Shown here: one piece after another, positions 10,465-63,151 of the stretch
How the letters are laid out: the number at the start of each line of letters is the position of its first letter
Numbering within the stretch: the first letter of the stretch is position 1
Assembly (NCBI GenBank): GCA_035505655.1
Contig: DATJQP010000085.1
Coordinates: forward strand, 6,395 to 70,394
DNA from: Bacteroidota bacterium
GTDB taxonomy: Bacteria; Bacteroidota; Ignavibacteria; UBA10030; UBA8401
Length of the DNA stretch: 64,000 bases
Reading direction: 5' to 3'
Notes under the pieces: model-generated
Seen by the model: only the letters and a program-made list of their open reading frames with translations
What the model was told of the DNA's origin: nothing
Databases searched by the model: none
Position numbers and translations under genes: made by a program

Positions 10465-10558
10465 GAAAGTCTCCTTTCTGAAGAATGAGGTTTGACGGAT
10501 GGTGAAGATCGACGCGCTGCTTTGAAAACGCAGGGTCGTGAGTGATGAGAGCCGCCCC

Positions 10559-11614: not shown

Positions 11615-11635
11615 TTATCGGTAAAGTAAACGATA
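11615..11635 (+). promoter_or_regulatory. Conserved motif copy A (AAAGTTATCGGTAAAGTAAACGATA) upstream of the GH28 gene. It contains the near-palindrome TTAYCGGTAA.
   Basis: It matches the motifs at 34840-34860 and 37214-37234 (22/23 identical core). It lies in the divergent intergenic region between the ECF sigma gene and GH28. Confidence 0.35.
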
Positions 11636-11905
11636 AAGTTCAGGACGCCCAGAATTCTCATTGATCGTCTATTTATCCCCCAAATCTCTCAGAAACGCCA
11701 GGTTTTTTCCTTCACATCGCAGTTGCTCACTCGCTATACCCTTTAACTTCGGACCCGGATGGGTTCTCTCACATCCTGACCAGTTCAAAATCGTCGCCTC
11801 CGCTCCGGCTTCCGGCACTCCTCGGGAGGTTCAAAATAGAATTGCATTCTATAGATGAACTTTGCTACAACCTCTGAGTCGCCATTCATGTTGATTTCCG
11901 GCCTC

Positions 11906-16464: not shown

Positions 16465-16474
16465 AAGGTTTGCC

Positions 16475-30879: not shown

Positions 30880-30964
30880 CCGGCGGCTCCAGCATGGAGC
30901 GCCGAATACTGAGAAGACGAATCTCTTTTTGAGTACACCTCGACAGACGATACGGAGGATCGAG

Positions 30965-47985: not shown

Positions 47986-48121
47986 GCGGTCGGAGCCATT
48001 GTTGCCGATCGGTGATACTGATTCGTTCTCGTGGTGCCGGAAAGGGGCCGAAGAGGCCCCTCCGGCGCCGGGGAGCGTCACGCAAGGCATTCCTGATGGG
48101 CGCGAGCCCGGAGTTGATCGC

Positions 48122-49429: not shown

Positions 49430-50836
49430 ATGAAGAAGGAATTTGCTCACAAGAACTTTCTCCTGGGCTCGAAGCGCGCCGAGACCTTGTATCACGATTA
49501 TGCCGAATCGCTGCCGATCATCGACTATCATAACCATCTTCCCGCCAAGGAAGTGGCGGAGAATCGCACCTTTGAAAACCTGACACAGGTCTGGCTCGCC
49601 GGTGATCACTATAAATGGAGGGCGATGAGAACTTGCGGTGTCGATGAGCGGTATATTACTGGCGCTGCCGACGATTGGGAAAAATTCGCGAAGTGGGCGG
49701 AGACCGTCCCGAAGACGCTGAGGAATCCCCTCTATCATTGGACGCACCTTGAGTTGAAGAACCCGTTTGGCATTACCGACCGGCTCCTTAACCCTGCGAC
49801 CGCGAAAGGGATCTGGGAGGAATGCAACGCGCTTCTGCGGTTGCCTCAGTACGCCGCACGCGGTATCCTTGAAAAGATGAATGTGGAGGTCATCTGCACC
49901 ACTGACGACCCCGTCGACACGCTCGAATATCATACCGCCCTCGCTAATTCCGCCTCACGGGTCCGGATGTACCCGGCTTTCCGGCCCGATAAGGCCATTG
50001 CCGTCGAGAATCCGGAGGCATTCGTCCGATACGTCAAGACGCTGGCCCAAGCTTCAGACGTCCACATCACAACGTTTGACCGTTACCTCGAAGCCCTCCA
50101 TCGGCGGGCACAGTATTTCGCCGAGCATGGATGCAGGGTTTCCGACCACGCGCTGGTGACGATGGTGGCCGAAGAGTACACGGCGGCGAAGGTAAGGACG
50201 ATTTTTGCGAAGCTCCTCCGGAAGAAGGAAGTGAGCGCCGAGGAGGCTGCCGTTTTCAAGTCTGCGATGATGCATGAGCTCGCGACCATCAACTGGGAAC
50301 ACAAGTGGGTTCAGCAGTTTCACGTGGGCGCGCTGCGAAACGTCAACACCCGGATGCTTCAACTCCTGGGACCGGATACCGGTTACGATTCGATAGGGGA
50401 TGAACCGGTTGCCCGTCCGATGGCGAAGTTTCTTGACGGCCTCGAACGGAAGCAGAAGCTTACGAAGACAATCCTCTACAACCTCAATCCACGCGACAAC
50501 GAGCTCTACGCGACGATGATCGGCAATTTCCAGGACGGGGTCGCGCCGGGAAAGATGCAGTATGGCGCCGCATGGTGGTTCCTCGACCAAAGGGATGGGA
50601 TGACAAAGCAGCTCGAGGCACTTTCAAGCATGGGACTCCTCGGTCAGTTTGTGGGCATGCTCACCGATTCGCGAAGCTTCCTTTCATTTCCCCGGCATGA
50701 ATACTTCCGCCGCCTCATCTGCAACATTCTCGGGAACGAAATGGAACAGGGCATCCTCCCGGACGACATTGAGCTCGTCGGGGGTTTGGTGAAAGATGTT
50801 TGCTACTACAATGCGAAGAGATATTTTGAATTCTGA
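49430..50836 (+). CDS. uxaC: Uronate (glucuronate/galacturonate) isomerase.
   Basis: Close match to UxaC along the whole length: 'FLLGSKRAETLYHDYAESLPIIDYHNHLPAKEVAENRTFENLTQVWLAGDHYKWRAMRTCGV...'. 468 aa. Confidence 0.92.
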   Translation: MKKEFAHKNFLLGSKRAETLYHDYAESLPIIDYHNHLPAKEVAENRTFENLTQVWLAGDHYKWRAMRTCGVDERYITGAADDWEKFAKWAETVPKTLRNPLYHWTHLELKNPFGITDRLLNPATAKGIWEECNALLRLPQYAARGILEKMNVEVICTTDDPVDTLEYHTALANSASRVRMYPAFRPDKAIAVENPEAFVRYVKTLAQASDVHITTFDRYLEALHRRAQYFAEHGCRVSDHALVTMVAEEYTAAKVRTIFAKLLRKKEVSAEEAAVFKSAMMHELATINWEHKWVQQFHVGALRNVNTRMLQLLGPDTGYDSIGDEPVARPMAKFLDGLERKQKLTKTILYNLNPRDNELYATMIGNFQDGVAPGKMQYGAAWWFLDQRDGMTKQLEALSSMGLLGQFVGMLTDSRSFLSFPRHEYFRRLICNILGNEMEQGILPDDIELVGGLVKDVCYYNAKRYFEF

Positions 50837-51003: not shown

Positions 51004-51837
51004 ATGGAAGTCAGATACGCCCCCAACGATGAATCATACCAGCGGATGACGACGGCGGAGCTTCGCCGGGCGTTTGTCATCGATACTCTTTTCACCCCCG
51101 ATCGTGTGACGATGGTCTACTCGGATGTCGACCGAGTCATCGTCGGTTCGGCGGTTCCGACCGGGAAGCCATTGCTTCTCGAAGCATCCAGAAAAGAGAT
51201 GGCAGCCGACTTTTTCGCGGAGCGTCGCGAAGTCGGCATCATCAACATCGGAGAGGCGGGAAGCGTAAGCGTGGACGGGACAAAGTACGCCATGGCGTTC
51301 AAGGACGTTCTCTACGTCGGGAGGGGGGCGAAAAAGATCGAATGTGCCAGTGCCTCAAAGAAAGCTCCTGCGACCTTCTATTTTGTCTCGTACCCGTCTC
51401 ATGCATCTCATCCCGTGACTCACGCCTCGTTCGACCGGGCGCTGAAATCTCCCCTCGGCTCCTCTCACAACGCCAACGAGAGGACGATCTGCAAGTACAT
51501 TCACTCCGAAGGGATCAAAAGCAGCCAACTTGTCATGGGGCTCACAGAGTTGAAAGAGGGATCGGTCTGGAATACGATGCCGAGCCACACCCATCAGCGG
51601 CGGATGGAAGTCTATCTCTACATCGGCCTCGACGAAGATTCAATCGTCGTCCACCTTATGGGGAAACCGACCGAGACGCGGTCACTTGTCCTCAGGAACC
51701 GGCAAGCGGTGATCTCCCCCCCATGGTCGATTCATTCCGCCGCGGGAACAAGGAACTACACCTTCATCTGGGCGATGGGGGGAGAAAATCAGGAGTTTGG
51801 GGATATGGACCCGGTCTCAATGAAGGAACTCCTCTGA
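51004..51837 (+). CDS. kduI: 5-dehydro-4-deoxy-D-glucuronate isomerase.
   Basis: 'MEVRYAPNDESYQRMTTAELRRAFVIDTLFTPDRVTMVYSDVDRVIVGSAVP' parallels the KduI N-terminus. Cupin motifs are present. 277 aa. Confidence 0.9.
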   Translation: MEVRYAPNDESYQRMTTAELRRAFVIDTLFTPDRVTMVYSDVDRVIVGSAVPTGKPLLLEASRKEMAADFFAERREVGIINIGEAGSVSVDGTKYAMAFKDVLYVGRGAKKIECASASKKAPATFYFVSYPSHASHPVTHASFDRALKSPLGSSHNANERTICKYIHSEGIKSSQLVMGLTELKEGSVWNTMPSHTHQRRMEVYLYIGLDEDSIVVHLMGKPTETRSLVLRNRQAVISPPWSIHSAAGTRNYTFIWAMGGENQEFGDMDPVSMKELL

Positions 51838-51889: not shown

Positions 51890-53173
51890 ATGACCACAGA
51901 GACAACCGCCGCGGGACCCATATCCGGAAAAGTGGGTAACTACCGATGGACGATCTGTGCCCTCCTCTTTCTGGCTACGACCATCAACTACCTCGATCGG
52001 TCCGTCCTCGGAATTCTGGCGCCGACCCTCCAGAAGGAAATAGGGTGGACGCCGATTGAGTACGGCTACATCGGGACCGTGTTCACGGGAGCGTACGCGA
52101 TCGGTCTGGTGCTCTTCGGCCGTTTCGTGGACCGCTATGGGACAAAGCTCGGATATATTGTCTCGCTGACAGGCTGGAGCATCGCCGCGATGGGGCACGC
52201 ACTGGCCGCAAGCGTTGTGGGATTTGCGGTTGCGAGGGGATTCCTCGGCCTCAGCGAGGCCGGCAATTTTCCCACAGCGATCAAGGCAGTGGCGGAGTGG
52301 TTCCCGAAAAAGGAGCGCGCCCTCGCCACCGGAATCTTCAACTCGGGGGCGAATATCGGGGCAGTGGTCGCACCCGCGGTCGTTCCCTGGTTGACCCTGA
52401 CATACGGCTGGCAGTCCGCGTTCATTGCGACAGGAGCGATCGGTTTGTTGTGGTTGTTTCTCTGGTCGGCATTATATGAACTGCCGGAGAACTCTAAGAA
52501 GGTTTCACCGGCAGAACTCGCCCACATCCTCAGCGACCCCGACACTTCGACACCCGTCAAAGTTCCCTGGCTGGTACTGCTTCGCTACCGGCAGACGTGG
52601 GCGTTTGTGATCGGGAAGTTCCTGACCGATCCGGTCTGGTGGTTCTATATTTACTGGCTCGGCCTCTTCCTCAACAACAATTTCGGCGTAAGCCTGGGCC
52701 AGATCGGCGCCCCACTTATCGTTATCTACACCATAACGAGCATCGGAAGCATCGGCGGCGGCTACCTCTCAGGGGCGCTGATCAATCGGGGCATGCCGGT
52801 CGACCGGGCGAGACGGATAACGATGCTAGTCTTCGCGATTCTGGTCGTCCCGGTGGTCACAGCAGGGGGGATCGGAAATATGTGGATGGCCGTGGGGATC
52901 ATCGGGCTGGCGACCGCCGCGCATCAAGGTTGGTCGGCGAACATCTTCACGATCGTCTCCGATATGTTCCCAAAGAAAGTAGTCGGATCGGTGACGGGGC
53001 TCGGAGCGTTTGCGGGCGCGCTGGGAGGGATGATCTTCCTGGCGCTGGCAGGTTACATTGTCGAGGCGACCGGCTCCTATATTATGCTCTTCGCCATTTG
53101 CGGGTCGGCGTACCTCATTGCGTTGGCTCTCATGACGCTCCTCACCGCAAAAGCAAAACCGGTGAATTTGTAG
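51890..53173 (+). CDS. exuT: MFS transporter, hexuronate transporter ExuT-like.
   Basis: 12 predicted transmembrane segments. 'NYRWTICALLFLATTINYLDRSVLGILAPTLQKEIGWTPIEYGYI...GRFVDRYGTKLGYIVSL...AEWFPKKERALATGIFNSGANIGAVVAP' resembles ExuT/ACS-family MFS transporters. Confidence 0.8.
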   Translation: MTTETTAAGPISGKVGNYRWTICALLFLATTINYLDRSVLGILAPTLQKEIGWTPIEYGYIGTVFTGAYAIGLVLFGRFVDRYGTKLGYIVSLTGWSIAAMGHALAASVVGFAVARGFLGLSEAGNFPTAIKAVAEWFPKKERALATGIFNSGANIGAVVAPAVVPWLTLTYGWQSAFIATGAIGLLWLFLWSALYELPENSKKVSPAELAHILSDPDTSTPVKVPWLVLLRYRQTWAFVIGKFLTDPVWWFYIYWLGLFLNNNFGVSLGQIGAPLIVIYTITSIGSIGGGYLSGALINRGMPVDRARRITMLVFAILVVPVVTAGGIGNMWMAVGIIGLATAAHQGWSANIFTIVSDMFPKKVVGSVTGLGAFAGALGGMIFLALAGYIVEATGSYIMLFAICGSAYLIALALMTLLTAKAKPVNL

Positions 53174-53222: not shown

Positions 53223-54005
53223 ATGTCATACATCGAAAACCTCTTTGGACTAAAAGGAAAAGTGGCCGTTGTGATCGGCGGAAGCGGCGTCCTCGGCGGG
53301 AGCATGGCTCGTGCTCTTGCGGATGCGGGGGCGAAGGTTGCCGTCGGCTACCATCACAATTCCGCGGGCGCGGCGAATGTCGTTGAAGCAATAGCGGCGT
53401 CTGGAGGTATCGGGAAGGAGGTCCATGTGGACACGTCGTCGTCTTCCGCCGTCGAACAGGGTAAAGACGAGATTGTTTCCCTCTGGGGAAAGGTCGATAT
53501 CGTCGTCAACGCTCCGGGGGTCAATTCCCCCACTCCTGTCTTTGACATCCCCGACGAAGAGTGGGATCGAATCCTTGACACCAACCTCAAAGGCGTCTTC
53601 TCATCCTGCCGCGTTTTTGCGAAGCAGATGATCGCCCAGAAGAGCGGCGGGAGCATCATCAACATCTCTTCCGTCTCCTCGGAGCTGCCGCTTTCGAAGG
53701 TCTTCACTTATTCAATTTCCAAGGCGGGCGTCAACAATATGACCCGTTTCCTTGCGAAAGAGTGGGCTCCCCAGAACATCAGGGTCAACGCGATCATGCC
53801 CGGCTTCTTTCCCGCCGAGCAGAACAGGAAAATTCTCACCGAGGAGCGACGAAAATCGATCTTCGCCCATACTCCCATGGGACGCTACGGCGAACCGCAG
53901 GAGCTTTCGGGGGCGCTGCTTTGGCTCGCCTCGGATCGTGCCTCGTCCTTCGTCACCGGGGCAGTCGTCGCCGTGGACGGCGGATTCACCTCGATGACAA
54001 TATGA
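53223..54005 (+). CDS. SDR-family oxidoreductase, a candidate fructuronate/tagaturonate reductase (short-chain-type UxuB/UxaB analogue). The substrate is not determinable from sequence.
   Basis: Rossmann motif 'GKVAVVIGGSGVLGGSMARALADAGAKV', 'NAPG', and catalytic 'SSVSS...YSISKAGVNNMTRFLAKEW' (S-Y-K). It is distinct from the kduD ortholog at 61629. Confidence 0.7.
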   Translation: MSYIENLFGLKGKVAVVIGGSGVLGGSMARALADAGAKVAVGYHHNSAGAANVVEAIAASGGIGKEVHVDTSSSSAVEQGKDEIVSLWGKVDIVVNAPGVNSPTPVFDIPDEEWDRILDTNLKGVFSSCRVFAKQMIAQKSGGSIINISSVSSELPLSKVFTYSISKAGVNNMTRFLAKEWAPQNIRVNAIMPGFFPAEQNRKILTEERRKSIFAHTPMGRYGEPQELSGALLWLASDRASSFVTGAVVAVDGGFTSMTI

Positions 54006-54063: not shown

Positions 54064-55224
54064 ATGCGTGTCGTTGTCGACAAGAAGAATCCCCTGGTGG
54101 CCGAAGCCTTTCGCCAGTTTGGAGAAGTCCGTGAATGCGCCACGCGCGATATCACTCGTGAGACGGTGCAGGATGCCGACATCATCATCATCCGGTCGGA
54201 GACAAAGGTCACGAAAGAGCTTCTCGACGGAACTTCGGTAAAGTTCGTCGGGACCGCGACGATTGGCACCGACCACGTGGACCTCGAGTATCTCCAGTCT
54301 CATGGTATCGGCTTCGCAAGCGCGCCGGGGTCGAACGCCAACTCGGTGGCGGAGTACATTGTTTCGGCGATTCTTACGCTCACCTGCCGCAAGGGCCTCC
54401 GGCTTTCCGACCTGACACTCGGTGTTGTCGGTGTGGGCAACGTGGGGAGCAAGGTTGTCCGGAATGCAAGAGCGCTTGGAATGAAGGTATTACAGAATGA
54501 CCCTCCGCTCGCGCGCACTACCGGAGATTCCGGGTTTCTTCCCCTTGAGAGACTTCTCGATGCCGACATCCTCACGCTCCACGTTCCGCTGACAAAGAAG
54601 GGAACCGACCCGACGTATCACCTCATCGGGCGTGAGTTCCTCTCGAAGTTGAAGAGCACCGCCGTCGTCATCAACACCTCCCGCGGACCGGTCGTCGATG
54701 GAGCCGCATTGAAGGAGGCGCTTGGCGAACGGCGTCTCGGTGGTGCAGTCCTCGACGTGTGGGAAGGGGAGCCGGTGATTGACGCCGAACTCCTTGCGAA
54801 GGTTGACATCGGCACGCCTCATATCGCCGGATACTCGTACGACGGCAAGCTCGCTGCGGTGAGGATGACATACGAAGCTGCATGCGGACATTTCGGACAG
54901 AAGAAGTCGTGGACTCCCGGAAGTTCCCAGCCCGCCCCCGCAGTCGGACGGATCAGTCTCCGGAGGGAAGAACGATCGACGGAGGAGACGCTCAAGAGTG
55001 TCGTCGCCCGGTGTTACGATATCCTCCGCGACGACGCCGGCTTGCGCCCGCTCATCCAAACGCCGGCTGAAGAGCGCCGCACATTCTTTGCGCGGCTCCG
55101 TTCGGAGTACGGCATACGACGGGAATTCCATAACACGGTTGTGGAACTCCCGATTGCGATGGAAGTCCTGGGTGAACAGCTTCGCGTGATAGGTTTCCAA
55201 ATAGCATGGAAGGATGGAGAGTAG
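54064..55224 (+). CDS. D-isomer-specific 2-hydroxyacid dehydrogenase, PdxB-like (erythronate-4-phosphate dehydrogenase family).
   Basis: N-terminus 'MRVVVDKKNPLVAEAFRQFGEVRECATRDITRETVQDADIIIIRSETKVTKELLDGTSVKFVGTATIGTDHVDLEYLQSHGIGFASAPGSNANSVAEY' is co-linear with E. coli PdxB ('MKILVDENMPYA...GEV...VRSVTKV...LL.G..IKFVGTATAGTDHVD...GIGFSAAPGCNA'). NAD motif 'GVVGVGNVGSKV'. It has a C-terminal extension typical of PdxB. Confidence 0.7.
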   Translation: MRVVVDKKNPLVAEAFRQFGEVRECATRDITRETVQDADIIIIRSETKVTKELLDGTSVKFVGTATIGTDHVDLEYLQSHGIGFASAPGSNANSVAEYIVSAILTLTCRKGLRLSDLTLGVVGVGNVGSKVVRNARALGMKVLQNDPPLARTTGDSGFLPLERLLDADILTLHVPLTKKGTDPTYHLIGREFLSKLKSTAVVINTSRGPVVDGAALKEALGERRLGGAVLDVWEGEPVIDAELLAKVDIGTPHIAGYSYDGKLAAVRMTYEAACGHFGQKKSWTPGSSQPAPAVGRISLRREERSTEETLKSVVARCYDILRDDAGLRPLIQTPAEERRTFFARLRSEYGIRREFHNTVVELPIAMEVLGEQLRVIGFQIAWKDGE

Positions 55225-55229
55225 GGAGC

Positions 55230-56477
55230 ATGGTCATCGGCAACGGAGCAATTTCGCGCGAAAGAACGGAAGAAGAGGTCTATGCGTTGAGCGAACGGGC
55301 ATTGGCGCAACTCCCGCTCGCGGGAAAACGGGTTCTTGTCATCATACCTGATACGACTCGCCATGCCGAGTTGCCCCTCTTCTTCAAGACGCTGGCCCGT
55401 ATCCTCGGCGGGAAAGTAGCGGCCCTCGATTATCTCGTCGCGACCGGCACTCACCACCCCCTTGGCATCGATGTCCTGTTGAAGCACGTGGGGATCACGG
55501 AGGAAGAGTACAAATCCCGACACACCCGAACGAAGTTCTTCAATCACCTCCACACGGACCGGAGCCAGCTCCGCACGATCGGCAGGATCCCGGCACGGGA
55601 GATTTCTGAGATCTCGCAGGGACTCTACGCCGAAGACGTCGATGTAACGATCAACAAACTCATCTTCGAGTACGACCAGCTAATCCTCGTGAGCCCGGTC
55701 GTCCCCCACGAAACGGTCGGCTTCGCGGGCGGGAACAAGTATTTCTTCCCCGGAATCGGCGGCGAAGAGATCATCCAGACATTTCACTGGATCGGCGCTT
55801 TGCTCACCAACCCGGTGGTCAACGGCGTGAAGGATACCCTCGTGAGGCGGGTGATCAACAGAGGGGCCACCTTCATCACCGTCCCAAGGATCTGCTTTGC
55901 GTTTGTCGTTGACGACCACAAAGTCTCATCCCTCTACATCGGATCTCCGGAAGAGGCGTGGGAGAAGGCGGCGGATGACTCTGCGAAAGTCCACATCAAA
56001 TACCTCGACCACCCGGTGAAGACCGTCCTGGGGATCGCGCCGTCGATCTACGAAGATATCTGGGTTGCCGGGAAGGTAATGTACAAGCACGAGCCAGTCA
56101 TCGCGGATGGCGGTGAGGTGATCATCTACGCGCCGCATATTGACGAGATTTCCTACTCGCACGGGAAGGAGATCCGCAAGGTCGGATACCACGTGCGCGA
56201 CTATTTCGTGCGCCAATGGAAGAAATTCGAGGGGACGTCGAGGCTCATCCTTGCCCATTCGACGAACGTACGGGGAATCGGGAGTTTTGAAAACGGAGTC
56301 GAGAAGCCGCGGATCAACGTAACGCTTGCAACGGCAATCCCGGAGTCCGAGTGCCGCGCGGTGAACCTCGGTTACCGCGACTACAGGACGATAGACATTG
56401 AGGAGTGGAAGTCACGGCAGAACGGTGATCTCCTCGTCGTCGAAAATGCCGGACAGCTTCTCTACCGTCTTCGTTGA
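55230..56477 (+). CDS. LarA-family (DUF2088) nickel-pincer-nucleotide-dependent alpha-hydroxyacid racemase/epimerase homolog.
   Basis: Key LarA motifs are conserved and co-linear with L. plantarum LarA: 'VLVIIPDTTRHAELP' (LarA 'IVIISSDHTRPVP'), 'YLVATGTHHP' (LarA 'ILVATGFHRP'), and 'HETVGFAGGNKYFFPGIG' (LarA 'ESHFFAGFSGGRKSVLPGIA', where K is the NPN-tethering Lys184). SD GGGAG upstream of the ATG at 55230; the upstream ATG at 55206 overlaps the previous gene. Confidence 0.75.
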   Translation: MVIGNGAISRERTEEEVYALSERALAQLPLAGKRVLVIIPDTTRHAELPLFFKTLARILGGKVAALDYLVATGTHHPLGIDVLLKHVGITEEEYKSRHTRTKFFNHLHTDRSQLRTIGRIPAREISEISQGLYAEDVDVTINKLIFEYDQLILVSPVVPHETVGFAGGNKYFFPGIGGEEIIQTFHWIGALLTNPVVNGVKDTLVRRVINRGATFITVPRICFAFVVDDHKVSSLYIGSPEEAWEKAADDSAKVHIKYLDHPVKTVLGIAPSIYEDIWVAGKVMYKHEPVIADGGEVIIYAPHIDEISYSHGKEIRKVGYHVRDYFVRQWKKFEGTSRLILAHSTNVRGIGSFENGVEKPRINVTLATAIPESECRAVNLGYRDYRTIDIEEWKSRQNGDLLVVENAGQLLYRLR

Positions 56478-56521
56478 AGCCCGTGCGCTGAGTTCTGAAA
56501 TCTCTCACGATCGAACAAACT

Positions 56522-57607
56522 ATGGCACTGAAATTCAAGACCGCTCAGGAAACTGAATTCGACCTTCTCGCCCTCGGTGAGTGCATGATCCGCCTCAGCC
56601 CTCCCGGCCATCAGCGCATCGAGCTGACTCCGGTGTTCGAGGCGTATGCCGGCGGAGGCGAGTACAATGTCGCCTATGCGCTCTCCCGGTACGGGATGAG
56701 GACAGCGTGGGTCTCACGGCTTGTCGACAATCCTCTCGGCGCATTCATCCGGAATCATGCCCGGGCGAGCGGCATGGACATCAGCGAGGTCGTACGGGTT
56801 CCGTATGACGGTTCCGGGCGTTCGGACAGGATCGGTCTCAACTTTACGGAGGTTGGCATCGGCGTCCGCGCGAGCGTGACAATGTACGACAGGGGGCATA
56901 CGGCAATCGCCCATATGACTCCTTCGGATGTCGATTGGAAGCGGCTCTTTTCCGAACGGAAGACTCGCTGGTTCCACACTGGCGGGATTTTTACGGCTCT
57001 CAGCGACGGTTGCGCCGAGGTGGCCTTCGAGTCGATGAAGGCTGCCCACGAAGCCGGGACGGTTGTCAGCTACGACCTTAACTTCCGGAGCAAGCTCTGG
57101 TCGAGCACAAAAGCCATCGAAGTGACGAAACGGCTTGTACCGTTCATCGACGTCCTCATCGGCAACGAAGAGGACTTTCAGAAGGTCCTCGGGTTTGAGG
57201 TTGAAGGGACGGACGATAAGCTCGTATCGCTCCCGATCGAAGGCTACAAGAAGATGGTGAAGCGGGTCGTCGAGACGTTCCCGAATGTCAAGGCGGTCGG
57301 TACGACGCTCCGGGAGGTCGTCAGCGGCCTCGTCAACAACTGGTCCGCAATCATGTATTACGACGGCGTCTTTTACGAGTCGAGGAAGTTCGCGAACCTT
57401 GAGATCGAAGACCGGGTAGGAGGCGGGGACGGTTTCTGCAGCGGCTTCGTCTACGGCCTCCTCCACGGGATGCCTCCGCAGGAGTGCGTTGAAATGGGGG
57501 CTGCCCATGGAGCGCTCCTTCAAAGCACGCGCGGAGATACGAGCATGGTTACGATGGAGGAGATCCGCCACGTCATGAAAGGCGGCAGTGCGAGGATCAA
57601 ACGATAG
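56522..57607 (+). CDS. kdgK: PfkB-family sugar-acid kinase, probable 2-dehydro-3-deoxygluconokinase.
   Basis: Ribokinase-like fold. 'GGGEYNVAYALSRYG', di-Gly switch, and C-terminal 'DRVGGGDGFCSGFVYGLL' anion-hole/ATP motif. Located in the KDG operon context. Confidence 0.75.
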   Translation: MALKFKTAQETEFDLLALGECMIRLSPPGHQRIELTPVFEAYAGGGEYNVAYALSRYGMRTAWVSRLVDNPLGAFIRNHARASGMDISEVVRVPYDGSGRSDRIGLNFTEVGIGVRASVTMYDRGHTAIAHMTPSDVDWKRLFSERKTRWFHTGGIFTALSDGCAEVAFESMKAAHEAGTVVSYDLNFRSKLWSSTKAIEVTKRLVPFIDVLIGNEEDFQKVLGFEVEGTDDKLVSLPIEGYKKMVKRVVETFPNVKAVGTTLREVVSGLVNNWSAIMYYDGVFYESRKFANLEIEDRVGGGDGFCSGFVYGLLHGMPPQECVEMGAAHGALLQSTRGDTSMVTMEEIRHVMKGGSARIKR

Positions 57608-57697
57608 GATCCTCCTCGAACGACCCGGAGGGCAATGGATAGCGCCGAGCCCGGGATGTGTTGAAAGGGCTATCCATTAACAGGAAGATAGGGTAGA

Positions 57698-58951
57698 ATG
57701 AAGATAGAAAAATACTCGATCGGTATTGGAGATCGGTTTGGTCACCAGGGTGTCGCTCAGCTCGATGCATTTGTCAAGGCGCGGAAACTCGGCGTCGATG
57801 TTGTCCCGGTGTGGAACAAATCCAACCGCGAGCACATTCTCATCGGGACCCAGGCTCGGGACACGAGGCACGAAGCGGACGGAGCAGTGAAAAAACTCGG
57901 CTGGAGCTCATTGTACTACGTCGATGCCGATCACATCGGACTCAAGACCGTTGACAGTTTCATCGAACCGAGCGACTATTTCACGCTCGACGTCGCCGAT
58001 TTCATCGGGATGGATCCGGACCCGGGGGACCTCTCGGAATTCGTGAAGTTCTGCGCGAAGTATGTCGGAACTCTCAGTATCCCGGGCGTTGCAGGAGGGA
58101 TCGAGGTGGGGAAGGAGACAATTTCCGCCGTGGGCCGAAAATACCTTACCGCGGCGAAAGAGGCGGGAAAGATCTACCGCCACATCGCTTCGGTGAAGGG
58201 AAAGGAAGGGTTTGTCACGGAGGTTTCGACGGACGAGACGAACACTCCGCAGACTCCTGTGGAGCTCCTCTTCGTCCTCGCCGCGCTTGCGATGGAAAAG
58301 GTGCCGCTCCAGACCGTGGCACCGAAGTTCACTGGGCAATTTCTCAAGGGGGTTGACTACGTCGGCGACCTTGGGCAGTTCGCGAAGGAGTTTGATGAGG
58401 ATCTCGCCGTCATCAGGTATGCCGTGGCCGAGTTCGGGCTTCCACAGACCCTGAAGATCAGCGTTCATTCGGGAAGCGACAAGTTCTCGATTTATCCGAT
58501 CATCCATAAATCGATGAAGAAACTGGATGCGGGCATTCATCTGAAGACGGCCGGTACCACCTGGCTCGAAGAAGTGATCGGTCTTGCGAAATCCGGCGGA
58601 GAAGGACTCCGGATCGCAAAGGAGATCTACGCCCAATCGTACCTCCGCATTGAAGAGCTCTCGAAGCCCTATCTCACCGTCATCGACATTCGTGAGACGG
58701 AGCTGCCGAAGCCCGCGGAAGTCAACAAGTGGGGAAGCGCCGAGTATGTCCGCGCCCTCAAACACGACCGGAACGATCTCCTCTACAACCGGTCGTTTCG
58801 TCAGCTCGTTCACATCGGCTTTAAGGTAGCGGCGGAGATGGGAGAGCGGTATCTCGAGGCTCTCGAGAAGTTTGCGCCGGCGATTGCCGAGGGGGTGACG
58901 GAAAACATCTATGAACGACACCTGCGACCGATATTCCTCGGAAGCGACTGA
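57698..58951 (+). CDS. GatZ/KbaZ-like TIM-barrel protein, a candidate tagaturonate/fructuronate epimerase (UxaE-like).
   Basis: 417 aa, no signal peptide. 'YYVDADHIGLKTVD' aligns with the GatZ 'LILGGDHLGPN' metal-binding region. Sits between two kdgK paralogs in the hexuronate operon. Assignment is by weak motif resemblance and context only. Confidence 0.4.
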   Translation: MKIEKYSIGIGDRFGHQGVAQLDAFVKARKLGVDVVPVWNKSNREHILIGTQARDTRHEADGAVKKLGWSSLYYVDADHIGLKTVDSFIEPSDYFTLDVADFIGMDPDPGDLSEFVKFCAKYVGTLSIPGVAGGIEVGKETISAVGRKYLTAAKEAGKIYRHIASVKGKEGFVTEVSTDETNTPQTPVELLFVLAALAMEKVPLQTVAPKFTGQFLKGVDYVGDLGQFAKEFDEDLAVIRYAVAEFGLPQTLKISVHSGSDKFSIYPIIHKSMKKLDAGIHLKTAGTTWLEEVIGLAKSGGEGLRIAKEIYAQSYLRIEELSKPYLTVIDIRETELPKPAEVNKWGSAEYVRALKHDRNDLLYNRSFRQLVHIGFKVAAEMGERYLEALEKFAPAIAEGVTENIYERHLRPIFLGSD

Positions 58952-59003
58952 TTCCGCGGGAGCCGGTTCGGGTTATCACACTGATTATGCGAAGGAGTAC
59001 TCG

Positions 59004-60086
59004 ATGAGCAACGCGTTGAAGATTCAACCCTCCGGGGCGCTTGACCTGGTTTCGCTCGGAGCCCTGGTGCACAGGCTGGATCCGGGAATTATCCCATTCA
59101 GGAAGGCAACAGAATGTCACATCCACGTCAGCGGCGGCGAGTTCAATGTGGCGGCAAATCTTGCCGATTGTTTCCGGCTCAACACCGGAATCGCTTCCGC
59201 GATGGTCGACTACCCGATCGGCGATCTCATTGCCGAGAGAGTGAGGGCGATGGGAGTGAAACCATTCTACAAACGATTCAAGCACAACGGTGTCAACGGT
59301 CCGAACATGGCAACTGTCTACAGCGACCGGGGCCAGGGGATGAGAGCCCCCGTTGTCTTTTACAATCGTTCGAATGAAGCGGCCGCCCAGTTGAAACCCG
59401 GAGATTTCGACTGGGGTGCAATCTTTGCGGGAGGAGTACGATGGTTCCACAGCGGCGGGATCTTCGCGGCGCTTTCACAAACGACGGGCGAAGTCATCAT
59501 CGAGGGGATGAAGGCCGCGAAGAAGGCGGGAGCGATCGTCAGCTTTGATCTCAACTTTCGCGAGAAGCTCTGGAATATCTGGGGAGGCGAGAAGAAGGCG
59601 GTGGAGGTCATCGCGAGGATTGTCGAAAACGCGGACGTCCTCGTCGGCAACGAGGAGGATCTTCAGAAAGGCCTGGGGATTCCCGGACCCGAGGTTGCGG
59701 CAAAATCAAAGCTCGACCCGAGCGCGTTCTTTGGGATGATCGACAAGGTCGTTGCGAAACATCCGCAGGTGAAGGTTGTGGCGACGACACTGAGGGAAGT
59801 CCGCTCCACGAACCACCACAGTTGGAGCGCGGTGGCCTGGATCGACGGAAAAACGTACGTCGCTCCGACCGCTGAACTTGACGTTCTCGACAGGGTCGGA
59901 GGGGGTGATGGGTTCGCGAGCGGCTTCTTTTACGGTCTCCTGACGGGCGAGCAGCCCGAGGAGGCCGTGAAGCTCGGATGGGCTCACGGTGCACTTCTCA
60001 CGACATTCCCGGGCGATACAACCATGGCGACGGTCGAGCAGGTTCGCGCTTTTGCCAGGGGCGGATCCGCGCGCATTCAGCGGTAA
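59004..60086 (+). CDS. Second PfkB-family sugar-acid kinase (a paralog of 56522-57607; both end in 'GGSARI(K/Q)R'). KDG kinase or another sugar-acid kinase.
   Basis: SD GAAGGAG upstream of the ATG at 59004. 'DLVSLGALVHRLDP...GGEFNVAANLA', 'DRVGGGDGFASGFFYGLL'. About 35-40% identity to the first kinase by eye. Confidence 0.75.
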   Translation: MSNALKIQPSGALDLVSLGALVHRLDPGIIPFRKATECHIHVSGGEFNVAANLADCFRLNTGIASAMVDYPIGDLIAERVRAMGVKPFYKRFKHNGVNGPNMATVYSDRGQGMRAPVVFYNRSNEAAAQLKPGDFDWGAIFAGGVRWFHSGGIFAALSQTTGEVIIEGMKAAKKAGAIVSFDLNFREKLWNIWGGEKKAVEVIARIVENADVLVGNEEDLQKGLGIPGPEVAAKSKLDPSAFFGMIDKVVAKHPQVKVVATTLREVRSTNHHSWSAVAWIDGKTYVAPTAELDVLDRVGGGDGFASGFFYGLLTGEQPEEAVKLGWAHGALLTTFPGDTTMATVEQVRAFARGGSARIQR

Positions 60087-60137
60087 ACTTCTGTCCACTT
60101 ATCATCCGAAAAACAACAGCAAGAGAAAGTTATCAGC

Positions 60138-61592
60138 ATGAATCAGAAAGCAGATATGGGGCTTGTGGGACTCGCCGTCATGGGAGAGAATCTGGTCCTT
60201 AATGTTGAGAGCCGCGGGTTCAGCGTCGCGGTGTTCAACCGAACGGTCGAAAAAGTCGACAATTTCGTCAACGGCAGGGCGAAGGGGAAGAAGATCATCG
60301 GCACGCATTCGATTGCGGAGCTCGCCGGGGCGCTGAAAACACCCCGGAAGATTATGCTCATGGTCAAGGCCGGCAAACCGGTCGATGAATTCATCGAGCA
60401 GATCATTCCCCACCTCGAGAAAGGGGATATCATCATTGACGGAGGGAACTCGCATTTCCCCGACACTATTCGAAGAACAAAGTATCTCGAATCGAAAGGA
60501 CTCCTCTACATCGGAACAGGCGTCTCGGGAGGAGAAGAAGGGGCGCTCAAGGGACCGTCGATCATGCCCGGCGGTTCTCCGGCGGCGTGGCCGCACGTGA
60601 AGCCCATCTTCCAGTCGATCGCCGCAAAGGTCGCCGACGGTACGCCCTGCTGCGATTGGGTCGGAGAGAACGGGGCCGGACATTTCGTGAAAATGGTCCA
60701 CAACGGGATCGAGTACGGTGACATGCAGCTCATCTGCGAAGTCTACCAGATTATGAAGGAGCTTCTCGGCATGTCTGCCCCCGAGATGCACAAGGTTTTC
60801 GAGGAGTGGAATCGCGGCGAGCTCGACAGCTACCTCATTGAAATCACGAGGGACATCCTCGCTTTCAAGGATGCGGATGGGGCGCCGCTCGTGGACAAGA
60901 TCCTCGACACGGCGGGACAGAAAGGGACGGGGAAGTGGACGAGTGTAGCCTCCCTTGACCTCGGGATCCCCCTCACCATGATCAGCGAGGCGGTCTACGG
61001 GCGATGTCTTTCCGCGGCCAAGGAAGACAGAGTCGAGGCCTCGAAGATTCTCAGAGGCCCCCAGCCGAAATTTACGGGAGACCGCAAGGCGTTCCTTGCC
61101 GACCTCGAAAAAGCGCTCTATGCTTCGAAGATCGTCTCCTACGCGCAGGGTTATGTGCTTCTTAGGGCTGCCGCGGAGGAGTTCAAATGGAATCTGAACT
61201 ACGGCGGCATTGCTCTCCTCTGGCGCGGCGGATGCATCATCCGATCCAGGTTCCTTGGGAGGATCAAAGAAGCCTTCGACAAGAATCCATCGCTCTCTAA
61301 CCTGCTTCTCGACCCCTTCTTCAAGGACACAGTCGAAGGATCACAGGAGGCATGGCGTCGCGTCCTCTCGACAGCGATTCTCAACGGAGTCTGGGTCCCG
61401 GCAATGGCGACGGCTCTCAATTATTTCGACGGCTACCGGAATGCACGCCTTCCGGCCAATCTTCTCCAGGCCCAGCGCGATTTCTTTGGGGCGCACATGT
61501 ACGAGCGGGTCGACAAGCCGCGGGGAGAGTTCTTCCATACGAACTGGACGGGACGCGGGGGTCATACCGCTTCTTCGACCTACGTCGTCTGA
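60138..61592 (+). CDS. gnd: 6-phosphogluconate dehydrogenase (decarboxylating).
   Basis: Near full-length co-linearity with Gnd: 'GLVGLAVMGENLVLNVESRGFSVAVFNRT', 'IIDGGNSHFPDTIRR', 'GTGVSGGEEGALKGPSIMPGG', 'HFVKMVHNGIEYGDMQLI', 'LLWRGGCIIRSRFL', 'QAQRDFFGAHMYERVDKPRGEFFHTNW'. Confidence 0.92.
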   Translation: MNQKADMGLVGLAVMGENLVLNVESRGFSVAVFNRTVEKVDNFVNGRAKGKKIIGTHSIAELAGALKTPRKIMLMVKAGKPVDEFIEQIIPHLEKGDIIIDGGNSHFPDTIRRTKYLESKGLLYIGTGVSGGEEGALKGPSIMPGGSPAAWPHVKPIFQSIAAKVADGTPCCDWVGENGAGHFVKMVHNGIEYGDMQLICEVYQIMKELLGMSAPEMHKVFEEWNRGELDSYLIEITRDILAFKDADGAPLVDKILDTAGQKGTGKWTSVASLDLGIPLTMISEAVYGRCLSAAKEDRVEASKILRGPQPKFTGDRKAFLADLEKALYASKIVSYAQGYVLLRAAAEEFKWNLNYGGIALLWRGGCIIRSRFLGRIKEAFDKNPSLSNLLLDPFFKDTVEGSQEAWRRVLSTAILNGVWVPAMATALNYFDGYRNARLPANLLQAQRDFFGAHMYERVDKPRGEFFHTNWTGRGGHTASSTYVV

Positions 61593-61628: not shown

Positions 61629-62402
61629 TTGTTCAATGAGGATGTCGTGAGCAACTTATTCAATATCACAGGCAAGACTGCGATTGTCACGGGAGGGAGT
61701 ACCGGGCTCGGGGCAGGGATGGCGCTTGCTCTCGCGGAGGCGGGAGCCGATCTCGTCCTCGTCGACCGGACCGGCTGCGAAGAAACAGCTGACAAAGTCC
61801 GCGCATTCGGTCGGAAGGCGATCAACATCGTCGCCGACCTCTCGACGATCGACCCGATCGAAAGAATTATGCGGCAGACCATCCAGGAGTACGGGAAGGT
61901 CGACATCCTCGTGAACAACGCGGGGATCATCCGACGGACTCCGGCGGCCGATTTCTCTGAAAAGGATTGGGACGAGGTCATGGCGATCAATTCCAAGACC
62001 GTCTTTTTCCTTTGCCAGGCTGCCGGGAGGGATATGTTGAAGCGAAAGTACGGGAAGATCGTCAACATCTCATCCCTCCTTGCCTTTCAGGGGGGAATCC
62101 TTGTCCCGTCGTACGCCGCTAGCAAAGCTGCGGTGGCACAGGTGACCAAAGCGCTCGCGAACGAGTGGGCGAGCCACGGTATCACGATCAACGCGATCGC
62201 TCCCGGCTATATGGCGACGAACAATACGAAGCCTCTCCGGGAGGATGCCGCCCGATCGAAATCGATTCTCGACCGTATTCCGGCCGGAAGATGGGGATTG
62301 CCCTCAGATCTGGGCGGAGCCGTTGTCTTCCTCGCGTCGCCGGCGTCGGACTATGTGAACGGCCACGTGCTCGTCGTGGACGGTGGCTGGCTGGCCCGGT
62401 AG
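61629..62402 (+). CDS. kduD: 2-dehydro-3-deoxy-D-gluconate 5-dehydrogenase.
   Basis: Very close to E. coli KduD over the full length: 'VNNAGIIRR...DFSEKDWDEVMAIN...NISSLLAFQGGILVPSYAASKAAV...LANEWA...ITINAIAPGYMATNNT...ILDRIPAGRWGLPSDL...VFLAS.ASDYVNGH...VDGGWLAR'. A possible GTG start lies at 61648. Confidence 0.9.
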   Translation: MFNEDVVSNLFNITGKTAIVTGGSTGLGAGMALALAEAGADLVLVDRTGCEETADKVRAFGRKAINIVADLSTIDPIERIMRQTIQEYGKVDILVNNAGIIRRTPAADFSEKDWDEVMAINSKTVFFLCQAAGRDMLKRKYGKIVNISSLLAFQGGILVPSYAASKAAVAQVTKALANEWASHGITINAIAPGYMATNNTKPLREDAARSKSILDRIPAGRWGLPSDLGGAVVFLASPASDYVNGHVLVVDGGWLAR

Positions 62403-62494: not shown

Positions 62495-63151
62495 ATGTCA
62501 AGGAAAGAAGTCCTCGCGCGAATTCTCGAAACCGGCGCCGTTGCCGTTATCAGGATGAAGGATCCGAAGCGGCTTTCGAAGGTTGTCGAGGCGATAAGAG
62601 CGGGGGGAGTGAAATCGATCGAGATTACGATGACGGTTCCCGGAGCGGTCGAGATCATTCGCGAGATGGCACGATCCGCCCCACCGGATATTCTTATTGG
62701 TGCAGGGACGGTGACGGAGAAATCGGGAGCGATTGCGGTGATCGAGGCCGGGGCGAACTTTGTCGTCGGGCCGGCCCTCAATCTCGACATCCTCGCCGTC
62801 TGCCGCGAAAGAGATGTTGTCTGCATGCCCGGTTGCTTCTCACCGACTGAAATCCTCACCGGATGGAATGCCGGGGCCGACGTCATCAAGGTGTTTCCGG
62901 CCACTTCGCTGGGCCCCAGGTATTTCAAAGACATCGCGGGGCCATTTCCTCAGATCCGTCTCATGCCCACCGGCGGCGTAACCGTGGACAACGTCGGCGA
63001 GTGGGTGGCAGCGGGGGCGGTTGCGGTTGGAATCGGAAGCGACCTGCTCGACAAGAAGGCGATCGAGGAAGAGAATTATGCCCTCCTTACCGAACGGGCA
63101 GCGCGTCTTTCGAAAAACTTCCTCGATGCCAGGTCGAAGGTAAAGAAATAG
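62495..63151 (+). CDS. eda: 2-dehydro-3-deoxy-phosphogluconate (KDPG) / KHG aldolase.
   Basis: 'LETGAVAVIRMKDPKRLSKVVEAIRAGGVKSIEITMTVPGAVEIIREM...IGAGTV...AIEAGANFVVGPALN...MPGCFSPTEI..AGADVIKVFPA...PTGGV'. The Schiff-base Lys context is conserved (GADVIKVFP). Confidence 0.88.
   Translation: MSRKEVLARILETGAVAVIRMKDPKRLSKVVEAIRAGGVKSIEITMTVPGAVEIIREMARSAPPDILIGAGTVTEKSGAIAVIEAGANFVVGPALNLDILAVCRERDVVCMPGCFSPTEILTGWNAGADVIKVFPATSLGPRYFKDIAGPFPQIRLMPTGGVTVDNVGEWVAAGAVAVGIGSDLLDKKAIEEENYALLTERAARLSKNFLDARSKVKK

Follow-up and report, generated by a model that had tools for sequence, protein, structure and literature searches.

The hexuronate gene cluster in the window, the whole 64,000-nucleotide stretch of DNA analysed here, probably encodes two converging routes for pectin uronates: the classical KDG route and a GntE-type epimerase shunt (Table 1). 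In the classical route, KduI and KduD would turn unsaturated uronate (5-keto-4-deoxyuronate) into KDG, from which PfkB1 (KdgK) would form KDPG for cleavage by Eda to pyruvate and glyceraldehyde-3-phosphate. In the shunt, UxaC would convert galacturonate to tagaturonate, UxaE would convert tagaturonate to fructuronate and the SDR would yield D-mannonate, which the LarA homologue would epimerise at C2 to D-gluconate. Phosphorylation by PfkB2 would then give 6-phosphogluconate, and Gnd would release ribulose-5-phosphate and CO2. All of these enzyme activities are predicted from sequence. If the prediction is true, pectin sugars of a pectin-degrading soil bacterium enter the pentose phosphate pathway via a nickel-cofactor epimerase.

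Table 1. Genes of the hexuronate cluster, with the evidence for each assignment.
Product	Position	Strand	Evidence
DUF4861 protein, opening the co-directional hexuronate block	47999..49396	+	Pfam DUF4861, 288 bits
UxaC uronate isomerase (galacturonate to tagaturonate; glucuronate to fructuronate)	49430..50836	+	Pfam UxaC, 676 bits, full length
KduI, 5-keto-4-deoxyuronate isomerase, KDG branch	51004..51837	+	Pfam KduI, 83 bits
ExuT-like MFS acid-sugar transporter	51890..53173	+	MFS_1, 216 bits
SDR, probable fructuronate reductase / D-mannonate oxidoreductase (Thermotoga maritima UxaD counterpart)	53223..54005	+	NF006132, 265 bits vs 281 cut-off
PdxB-type D-2-hydroxyacid dehydrogenase (4-phosphoerythronate dehydrogenase by sequence)	54064..55224	+	NF001309, 426 bits vs 434 cut-off; DUF3410
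LarA-superfamily GntE-type NPN-dependent hexonate 2-epimerase (predicted D-mannonate to D-gluconate)	55230..56477	+	Lar_N, 73 bits; 4NAR homology
PfkB1, probable KDG kinase (KdgK)	56522..57607	+	Match to KdgK 2AFB of T. maritima, 234 bits
UxaE tagaturonate/fructuronate epimerase, short form	57698..58951	+	Pfam UxaE, 173 bits vs 27 cut-off
PfkB2, KdgK paralogue and probable kinase of the shunt (6-kinase for gluconate or possibly mannonate), 360 aa	59004..60086	+	Paralogy, gene context
Gnd, NADP-dependent decarboxylating 6-phosphogluconate dehydrogenase	60138..61592	+	TIGR00873, 762 bits vs 427 cut-off
KduD, 2-dehydro-3-deoxy-D-gluconate 5-dehydrogenase, KDG branch	61629..62402	+	TIGR01832, 373 bits vs 339 cut-off
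Eda, KDPG/KHG aldolase, KDG branch	62495..63151	+	TIGR01182, 186 bits vs 156 cut-off

The homology, residues, fold and conserved context of the LarA homologue are direct observations. An earlier note on this DNA had read LarA-family motifs in this 415-residue protein, including the NPN-tethering GGxK lysine, and the reading holds: the Lar_N score exceeds its 23.3-bit cut-off, and D41-T-T-R44, H75, H160, G167-G-N-K170 (K170 being the tethering lysine) and H186 (nickel ligand) are present, so that neither catalytic histidine, whose loss the note had named as an objection, is missing. Residues D41, R44, H75, H160, K170 and H186 are invariant across 80 orthologues (80 species in about ten phyla, 49–80% identity), as are the counterparts of LarA residues D72, R75, H108, H174, K184, H200 and K298. 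The closest solved relative is T. maritima TM0442/GntE2 (4NAR; E=7e-67, full length, 36.8% identity), with which the AlphaFold2 model (pLDDT 88) agrees at TM 0.88 and rmsd 2.4 Å. For GntE2, D-mannonate/D-gluconate 2-epimerase activity is proven (PMC7583248). The specificity signature published for GntE enzymes (PMC11770544) consists of E, V/S, A and H; the window protein carries E161, T162, A342 and H343, of which E161, A342 and H343 are each found in 80/80 orthologues, with T, A or V at position 162. Because of the GntE2 homology, the signature residues and the conserved gene context, the protein is most likely a GntE-type epimerase that flips C2 of mannonate to give gluconate. Against this reading counts that its subfamily is known here by sequence, the protein sharing 37% identity with GntE2 and 29% with an NF052594 family member.

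The epimerase would act like LarA and GntE2, with NPN tethered to K170 and nickel held by H186. The hydride at C2 would pass to NPN and the hydroxyl proton to H75 or H160, generating bound 2-keto-gluconate, to whose opposite face the hydride would then be delivered back. No Pfam match to LarB, LarC or LarE was detected among the scanned ORFs of the window, as the note had stated, nor in the 10 kb downstream, and these genes were likewise not found near the 80 orthologous loci; NPN would come from larBCE genes elsewhere in the genome.

The supply of mannonate is suggested by the combination of UxaE, UxaC and an SDR of the mannonate oxidoreductase type. The uxaE gene, which the earlier gene list had overlooked, lies between the two PfkB kinase genes, and its product matches the solved UxaE structures 9LHU and 6ILA (E about 1e-24). 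Its presence points to mannonate, rather than altronate, as the hexonate, and so narrows the earlier proposal of 'mannonate or altronate' to the former. For the SDR, D-mannonate oxidoreductase is the best NCBIfam match, below the cut-off, which the orthologue in locus L060 passes at 361 bits. The ExuT-like transporter has its top NCBIfam match, also under the cut-off, in the D-galactonate transporter subfamily (244 bits), and a DUF4861 gene also heads the orthologous loci L003, L004 and L007. The gnd, kduD and eda genes had been correctly identified, all three exceeding curated NCBIfam cut-offs. Mannonate/altronate dehydratases (UxuA, UxaA) and UxaB gave no Pfam match among the scanned window ORFs or in the 10 kb downstream; this agrees with the earlier claim that the operon has no dehydratase genes, and the uxuA, uxaA or uxaB genes that might have lain just outside the window were not found over that distance. 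This leaves no rival route nearby, which favours the two-route reading.

A GntE-type shunt to 6-phosphogluconate would account for two features of this pectin operon, the presence of gnd and that of a second PfkB kinase gene. The start of the second kinase gene, previously placed at 58911, is corrected here to that in Table 1. PfkB2 is 43% identical to PfkB1, scores only 160 bits to KdgK 2AFB and forms a clean orthogroup distinct from the KdgK-like PfkB1, whose separate orthogroup usually occurs in loci that also contain Eda. In Myxococcota-labelled loci lacking Eda and Kdu genes, PfkB2 lies downstream of the LarA homologue and Gnd, and in locus L088 an orthologue of 80% identity adjoins a different LarA subfamily and Gnd; PfkB2 therefore co-occurs with Gnd alongside either of two LarA subfamilies. 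From these patterns, the shunt kinase is probably this KdgK paralogue and not an FGGY gluconokinase. Counting against that reading, we know of no characterised precedent for a PfkB-family gluconate kinase.

Gene neighbours were counted in 42 fully flanked species loci of the LarA homologue, drawn from about ten phyla: 35 have an SDR of the D-mannonate oxidoreductase type, 28 have Gnd, 23 UxaE and 18 UxaC. The SDR, LarA homologue, kinase and Gnd recur as a group across the orthologous loci. Most members of the subfamily belong to uncultured lineages, whose labels include Bacteroidota, Ignavibacteria, Myxococcota, Chloroflexota and Acidobacteriota.

The epimerase shunt itself is not new. For T. 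maritima, a uxaE-uxaD-gntE-gntK-gnd shunt was proposed by Rodionova et al. (2012; cited in PMC3750489 and PMC6978723) and tested biochemically in 2020, when GntE2 activity was shown (PMC7583248). The earlier proposal of a C2-epimerisation shunt through gluconate and 6-phosphogluconate to Gnd is therefore supported by GntE2 homology, signature and context, but describes a route already published. The observation behind it is confirmed, its core inference is well supported and its interpretation, supported in part, is largely right. What departs locally from the known shunt is the KdgK-paralogue kinase PfkB2 and the attached pdxB-like gene.

The tight packing of the PdxB-type gene against the LarA homologue, described previously, is evident from its TAG stop codon (55222–55224), which is separated by 5 nt from the ATG at 55230, with GGAG just upstream of this ATG. 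Its product comprises the Pfam domains 2-Hacid_dh, 2-Hacid_dh_C and DUF3410, falls 8 bits short of the PdxB equivalog cut-off and matches Salmonella PdxB (3OET) with 283 bits. It retains all the PdxB-specific phosphate-binding and catalytic residues R44-S45, D146-P-P, R207, E236, H253, Y257 and R346. Most simply, then, the gene appears to encode a genuine 4-phosphoerythronate dehydrogenase. 4-Phosphoerythronate inhibits Gnd and, if uncleared, makes gluconate toxic (PMC6449344). It would arise as flux enters the pentose phosphate pathway, and our tentative best guess is that the co-expressed PdxB-type enzyme clears it. Against this guess, Gnd is not significantly commoner in those of the 42 fully flanked loci that have a pdxB-like gene (13/16 versus 15/26 without, p=0.18), and gnd was not adjacent to pdxB in two sampled stand-alone PdxB contexts. 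The dehydrogenase might instead join the C2 chemistry in a KguD-like role, reducing 2-keto-gluconate or 2-keto-6-phosphogluconate escaping from the epimerase. Pseudomonas KguK/KguD pairs a PfkB kinase with a 2-hydroxyacid dehydrogenase, and the substrate of both enzymes considered here would be a D-2-hydroxy acid or the corresponding 2-keto compound. In addition, 25 of the 71 evaluable loci, in several phyla, have a pdxB-like gene as the immediate upstream neighbour of the LarA homologue, and such a gene accompanies the second LarA subfamily too. However, about two thirds of the orthologous loci lack it, and R44, Y257 and R346, which position the phosphate of the four-carbon PdxB substrate, are kept without indels. 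Only one of 386 alignment columns splits 31 LarA-linked sequences from five stand-alone or solved PdxBs, and the linked sequences are as close to stand-alone PdxBs (49–55% identity in a sampled comparison) as to the window copy (44–52% across phyla). A C2 role is thus improbable, and the 2-ketogluconate-type reductase suggested earlier finds no sign in a protein indistinguishable from stand-alone PdxBs.

The order of kinase and epimerase is likewise a prediction, and a phosphorylated route, in which PfkB2 would serve as mannonate 6-kinase and the LarA homologue as 6-phosphomannonate 2-epimerase, giving 6-phosphogluconate directly, is unlikely. Extracts of Lactobacillus suebicus convert mannonate only with ATP, make 6-phosphomannonate and interconvert it with 6-phosphogluconate (PMC6978723). 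Published GntE KM values for free mannonate are high (9–120 mM), so that the physiological substrate could be a related compound; PfkB2 has diverged from KdgK, and the PdxB-type enzyme encoded in the same operon is of a kind that takes a phosphorylated aldonate. On the other hand, the turnover of free mannonate by GntE2, the nearest relative with a characterised activity, is 197 per second (PMC7583248), and the PdxB-like protein resembles an ordinary PdxB, not an enzyme tied to a hexonate phosphate. It is very unlikely that the epimerase acts one step earlier, on D-fructuronate (5-keto-D-mannonate) to give 5-keto-D-gluconate, with the SDR as gluconate 5-dehydrogenase. This activity is the runner-up NCBIfam match of the SDR (216 bits), and, on chemical grounds, fructuronate too is a 2-hydroxy acid, with C2 as its sole difference from 5-ketogluconate; but the first-ranked match is D-mannonate oxidoreductase, whose cut-off orthologues pass, and GntE2 accepts mannonate itself. 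Least probable is a lactate racemase, a racemase of another small 2-hydroxy acid or an inactive, cofactor-less remnant, despite public annotations that read 'lactate racemase (domain-containing protein)' and the lack of larBCE in the window or near orthologous loci. The protein does not group with lactate racemases, an outcome the earlier note had set as a test: it scores 50 bits against the LarA equivalog model (cut-off 460) and its specificity residues contrast with the F/F/W/(E/Q) typical of lactate racemases. The gene context is hexuronate, not lactate, metabolism, and invariance of the catalytic and cofactor residues across the 80 species argues against decay.

The predicted GntE-type shunt most resembles the T. 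maritima pectin locus, whose parts include gnd along with uxaE, uxaD, gntE and gntK (PMC3750489), and shares its pathway logic of UxaC, UxaE, SDR reductase, epimerase, kinase and Gnd. GntE2 (LarAH20) and the window protein share superfamily, fold, catalytic and NPN residues and GntE signature, but their low identity sets the latter in a separate subfamily. The kinase is an FGGY GntK in T. maritima and a PfkB KdgK paralogue here, where UxaE is of the short form and a PdxB-type gene is added.

The same function is predicted for NF052594, the 'nickel-dependent putative hexonate epimerase', which from the model's name appears to be LarAH group 18 of Desguin et al. (2020); that group has the same predicted function and neighbours an SDR, Gnd, a ribokinase-family kinase, MFS, UxaC and KduI. 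The LarA-type protein in L088 is a true NF052594 member (659 bits) and also adjoins a PdxB-like gene. The window protein, at 167 bits against a cut-off of 500 and 29% identity to the L088 member, is by sequence a parallel subfamily and not a member.

Lactiplantibacillus plantarum LarA (5HUQ) shares Lar_N, the NPN-tethering lysine, the nickel-binding histidine, two catalytic histidines and the same presumed proton-coupled hydride-transfer mechanism, whereas the window protein is about 18% identical to it, has other specificity residues and lies in a hexuronate context without adjacent larBCE. The Lactobacillus suebicus route similarly takes galacturonate-derived mannonate to 6-phosphogluconate and Gnd and is redox-neutral, but places the kinase first, with the epimerase acting on the phosphate ester, and is known from extracts. 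Solved PdxBs (3OET, 2O4C, 5DT9) share 39–45% identity, the DUF3410 dimerisation domain, the D-P-P loop, the catalytic Arg/Glu/His and the R44/Y257/R346 anchors with the window copy, which differs in residing within a catabolic hexuronate operon, immediately upstream of an NPN epimerase gene.

The 415-residue LarA homologue contains the Lar_N domain (PF09861, DUF2088), scoring 73 bits against a Pfam cut-off of 23.3. Its best match among solved structures is 4NAR, the Thermotoga maritima protein TM0442 or GntE2 (229 bits, E=7e-67, residues 32–414; 36.8% identity); lactate racemases come next, with no more than 36 bits. An AlphaFold2 model of the homologue (pLDDT 88.3, pTM 0.88) superimposes on 4NAR with a TM score of 0.88 and an rmsd of 2.4 Å, compared with TM scores of 0.67–0.77 for lactate racemases. 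Residues D41 and R44 correspond to D72 and R75 of LarA, H75 to H108, H160 to H174 and K282 to K298. Lys170, in the motif GGNK, is the counterpart of K184, to which the cofactor, nickel-pincer nucleotide (NPN), is tethered, and H186 that of the nickel ligand H200; the 16-residue spacing between K170 and H186 is the same as in LarA. All seven residues are the same in every one of 80 orthologues, the best 80 of at least 582 stretches encoding relatives, and the earlier note's recognition of a LarA-like gene with diagnostic motifs is borne out.

According to a 2024 survey of the LarA superfamily, GntE enzymes usually have E, V, A and H at LarA positions 175, 176, 358 and 359 (PMC11770544), and a 2020 paper gives E-V/S for the GntE loop (PMC7583248). 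The LarA homologue has E161, T162, A342 and H343 at these signature sites. Among the 80 orthologues, E161, A342 and H343 never vary; position 162 holds V in 54, A in 14 and T in 12. Clustering with bona fide lactate racemases, or a lack of the catalytic histidines, had been named in the earlier note as refuting its proposal. Both histidines (H75 and H160) are present, and lactate racemase identity is rejected on the signature residues, the gene context and a score of 50 bits against the equivalog cut-off of 460 for NF033504 (lactate racemase LarA sensu stricto).

Membership of NF052594, a putative hexonate epimerase family, is likewise rejected. The LarA homologue scores 167 bits against an equivalog cut-off of 500, other members of its family 156–195 bits and GntE2 180 bits, whereas a true member, encoded at locus L088 of another genome, reaches 659 bits and is merely 29% identical to the LarA homologue. 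No curated NCBIfam model passes its cut-off for the subfamily. Similarity to GntE2, the signature residues and the failed lactate racemase and NF052594 cut-offs together place the LarA homologue, as judged from sequence, within the GntE branch of the LarA superfamily as a separate subfamily. Its closest characterised relative is a proven GntE: GntE2 interconverts D-mannonate and D-gluconate with a KM of 17 mM and a kcat of 197 per second (PMC7583248), and the same pair is the predicted substrate of the LarA homologue. The public labels 'lactate racemase' and 'DUF2088' carried by these genes are corrected accordingly.

In LarA and GntE2, the C2 hydride passes to the lysine-tethered NPN as one histidine takes the proton from the hydroxyl; the 2-keto acid remains bound and the hydride is returned to its other face (PMC7583248). 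LarB, LarC and LarE domains are absent from the scanned ORFs of the window, in agreement with the earlier note, and from the 10 kb downstream. Nothing related to NPN synthesis was found among the ORFs of the first 11.8 kb of the window. A search for larBCE, nickel transporters, UxuA and P-loop GntK among the window ORFs and 146 unannotated neighbour ORFs of the 80 orthologous loci returned no family in more than three loci, and larBCE were not among the families common to at least two of the 146. The cofactor would have to be supplied by genes elsewhere in the genome.

The LarA homologue lies within a catabolic block that follows the pectin-degradation genes of a large, co-directional pectin-utilisation locus. 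The gene boundaries of this block agree with independent gene calls on metagenome contigs encoding an identical LarA homologue; the protein that is 100% identical in NCBI is labelled 'MAG TPA: Bacteroidota bacterium'. The genes listed in the earlier note were correct, but uxaE, between the two kinase genes, had been overlooked. UxuA, UxaA and UxaB were not found among the scanned ORFs of the window or in the 10 kb downstream, in line with the absence of mannonate and altronate dehydratase genes stated in the earlier note.

Genes of the catabolic block and their basis of assignment
Feature	Coordinates	Strand	Basis
DUF4861 protein	47999-49396	+	domain/family profile matches
UxaC	49430-50836	+	domain/family profile matches
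KduI	51004-51837	+	domain/family profile matches
ExuT-like MFS transporter	51890-53173	+	domain/family profile matches
SDR	53223-54005	+	domain/family profile matches
PdxB-like dehydrogenase	54064-55224	+	domain/family profile matches
LarA homologue	55230-56477	+	domain/family profile matches
PfkB1	56522-57607	+	domain/family profile matches
UxaE	57698-58951	+	domain/family profile matches; gene lies between PfkB1 and PfkB2
PfkB2	59004-60086	+	domain/family profile matches
Gnd	60138-61592	+	domain/family profile matches
KduD	61629-62402	+	domain/family profile matches
Eda	62495-63151	+	domain/family profile matches

The gap between the PdxB-like stop codon and the start of the LarA homologue is 5 nt, with GGAG upstream. 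Terminator-like sites in the 47–64 kb region are no commoner than in shuffled sequence, so the promoter and terminator scan says nothing on operon limits; neither the Rfam nor the tRNA search of the window gave a match. The region from 11.8 to 48 kb encodes two GH28 enzymes, pectinesterases, a Pel9A-like lyase, a GH88 enzyme, a LacI regulator, a TonB-dependent receptor and several type-IX-secreted proteins. Three large ORFs in the pectin locus (30788-34792, 16265-18697 and 19739-21223; 1334, 810 and 494 residues) have no Pfam match at E<=1e-5; type-IX secretion tails occur on their neighbours, and they may be uncharacterised secreted or surface proteins. Positions 1-11800 include several ORFs of 135–266 residues without a Pfam match, a 1284-residue type-IX-secreted subtilase (5836-9690) and, on the minus strand, an ECF-type sigma factor (10963-11559). 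The UxaE of the window is a short form of 417 residues that matches the Pfam UxaE profile with 173 bits over positions 79–431 of 475. This short form is kept in loci of Bacteroidota, Ignavibacteria and Myxococcota, and a canonical UxaE of ~520 residues (494 bits) is found in loci labelled Chloroflexota and Acidobacteriota.

A survey of one genome per species recovered the at least 582 stretches, which span about ten phyla and come mostly from uncultured soil and sediment bacteria. The best 80, with LarA homologues 49–80% identical to that of the window, carry record titles from Bacteroidota, Ignavibacteria, Fidelibacterota, Myxococcota, Chloroflexota, Acidobacteriota, Planctomycetota, Verrucomicrobiota, Hydrogenedentota, Nitrospirota and WOR-3. 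Their ORFs were annotated with the window proteins as queries and the remaining ORFs were clustered. The recurring module comprises the SDR, an optional HAD protein, an optional PdxB-like protein, the LarA homologue, a kinase and Gnd, often with UxaC and UxaE nearby. Of the 42 fully flanked loci, which extend at least 4 kb on either side of the LarA homologue, 35 encode the SDR, 28 Gnd, 23 UxaE and 18 UxaC. Orthologues of the SDR pass the D-mannonate oxidoreductase model (361 bits; cut-off 281), and the window SDR falls just short at 265 bits. Predicted enzymes for mannonate supply and for the use of gluconate and 6-phosphogluconate are both encoded in the window (UxaC, UxaE, SDR, kinase and Gnd), in an arrangement conserved across phyla. 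The one step missing between the SDR product and the Gnd substrate is C2-epimerisation of mannonate to gluconate, so the context independently predicts the GntE reaction. In T. maritima, gntE lies between the genes for fructuronate reductase and gluconate kinase (PMC6978723).

A ~700-residue protein that resembles molybdopterin oxidoreductases by eye follows the LarA homologue in seven loci (L035, L042, L051, L057, L061, L066 and L073), five of which are labelled Blastocatellia or Acidobacteria. In four of the seven it is followed by a ~290-residue membrane protein.

The two PfkB kinases are 43% identical and form separate, clean orthogroups (600–770 bits within a group, ~260 bits between groups). 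In comparison with T. maritima KdgK (2AFB), PfkB1 reaches 234 bits and PfkB2 160 bits, and both fall below every NCBIfam cut-off. PfkB1 usually co-occurs with Eda. In Myxococcota-labelled loci without Eda and Kdu genes, PfkB2 comes directly after the LarA homologue and Gnd, and at L088 a PfkB2 with 80% identity stands beside Gnd and the LarA homologue of the NF052594 subfamily. PfkB2 thus accompanies Gnd and either LarA subfamily, also where Eda and Kdu are absent, which indicates that it tracks the shunt and not 2-keto-3-deoxygluconate (KDG) metabolism. PfkB2 is probably the shunt kinase, in support of the earlier proposal that one of the paralogues has this role, and it is nominated as a new PfkB-family gluconate or mannonate kinase.

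The order of the two reactions may be either of two: PfkB2 could phosphorylate gluconate after epimerisation, or mannonate before it. The mannonate-first order has been measured in extracts of L. suebicus, where the genes are unidentified (PMC6978723). PfkB2 and the LarA homologue are accordingly candidates for two activities of that organism, its mannonate kinase and its 6-phosphomannonate epimerase. A PfkB- or FGGY-type sugar-acid kinase of any kind is encoded in 17 of the 42 fully flanked loci, and in three loci of other lineages an FGGY gluconokinase-like gene occupies the kinase slot. In 15 of the 80 loci (for example, L021:11256-12557), none of which has a PfkB kinase, a PFK-family gene stands next to the LarA homologue or Gnd. 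This gene was considered as the missing gluconate kinase and rejected, because it passes the PPi-dependent phosphofructokinase cut-off (NF010675, 380 against 273 bits). Such an enzyme may link the pentose-phosphate output to glycolysis.

The PdxB-like product differs from a generic 2-hydroxyacid dehydrogenase. It scores 426 bits against the cut-off of 434 for the PdxB equivalog NF001309 and 42 bits for the dimerisation domain DUF3410, and is 39–45% identical to three solved PdxBs. All PdxB-specific features that the 2HADH knowledgebase names (PMC6303947) are present without indels: R44-S45, the D146-P147-P148 cofactor loop, R207/E236/H253, Y257 and R346. Among these, R207, E236 and H253 correspond to the catalytic Arg208/Glu/His254 of the P. 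aeruginosa numbering, and R44, Y257 and R346 to the phosphate anchors Arg44, Tyr258 and Arg346; they are kept in 31–32 of 32 aligned sequences, LarA-linked homologues included. The NCBI annotation pipeline also gives the name 4-phosphoerythronate dehydrogenase to close LarA-linked homologues. In 25 of 71 evaluable loci the gene is the direct upstream neighbour of the LarA homologue, an arrangement spread over at least three separate regions of the tree of LarA homologues. Conversely, when the neighbours of seven PdxB homologues (53–66% identity) were inspected, four directly preceded a LarA homologue of the window family, three of these coming right after Gnd; one followed Gnd beside the other LarA subfamily, and two were stand-alone. 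Gnd was not significantly enriched in fully flanked loci with a PdxB-like gene (p=0.18). At locus L083 (6001-8469), a stand-alone PdxB 57% identical to that of the window is followed by an 87-residue ORF and a 321-residue class-II-aldolase-like protein with a weak precomputed Lar_N match.

A specialised, neofunctionalised PdxB subfamily would be one account of this linkage, and it is rejected on two grounds. A single alignment column separates 31 linked sequences from five stand-alone or solved PdxBs, and linked sequences of distant phyla are no less similar to a stand-alone PdxB (49–55% identity) than to the window copy (44–52%). On the simplest reading of the sequences, the product is a true 4-phosphoerythronate dehydrogenase whose gene recurs in this operon. 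Such a reading, with all PdxB-specific features kept and one discriminating column, argues against the suggestion in the earlier note that the enzyme acts on the same C2 position as the epimerase.

4-Phosphoerythronate is an inhibitor of Gnd, and in Bacillus subtilis it makes gluconate toxic unless it is cleared (PMC6449344); an operon sending all carbon through Gnd might gain from a co-expressed enzyme that consumes this metabolite. It is tentatively proposed, as a possible though rather doubtful explanation, that the recurrent pdxB, or a HAD-type hydrolase in the same slot elsewhere, is a metabolite-proofreading part of the shunt. All uronate carbon would have to pass through Gnd and the non-oxidative pentose phosphate pathway; erythrose-4-phosphate would be oxidised in a side reaction, giving 4-phosphoerythronate, which would block Gnd, and a co-expressed 4-phosphoerythronate dehydrogenase would keep the shunt open. 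If so, a vitamin-B6 biosynthetic enzyme would serve for damage control within a catabolic operon. No publication linking pdxB to hexuronate operons was found; the recurrent link between pdxB and the shunt seems to be unreported and may reflect control of 4-phosphoerythronate toxicity.

In 15 of the 80 species loci (L049:8723-9625 and 14 others, e.g. L041, L065, L071, L080 and L086), a HAD-superfamily protein of ~300 residues has its gene immediately upstream of that for the LarA homologue or for the PdxB-like protein. Its only match was a weak one to HAD_2; no NCBIfam family fitted it, and sequence comparison gave no solved relative. The protein may be a shunt-linked phosphatase, which would fit a phosphatase answer to the 4-phosphoerythronate problem.

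The cluster at L088 (1121-7599) encodes UxuA, PfkB2, the NF052594 LarA homologue, Gnd, a PdxB-like protein and UxaC, so that the kinase, Gnd and pdxB partners are common to two epimerase subfamilies. The GntE shunt, which leads from pectin and glucuronate to pentose phosphates and is redox-neutral, was proposed in 2012 (Rodionova et al., as cited in PMC3750489 and PMC6978723), and its epimerase was demonstrated in 2020 (PMC7583248). The central claim, that of a GntE-type shunt, is a rediscovery; the present analysis extends the shunt from Thermotogae to the predicted epimerases of a large, widespread LarA subfamily, with a probable PfkB-type shunt kinase and a conserved pdxB partner as local variations. 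Like the window, LarAH group 18 of Desguin et al. (2020), already predicted there to be a hexonate epimerase, has a neighbourhood of SDR, Gnd, a ribokinase-family kinase, UxaC and KduI.
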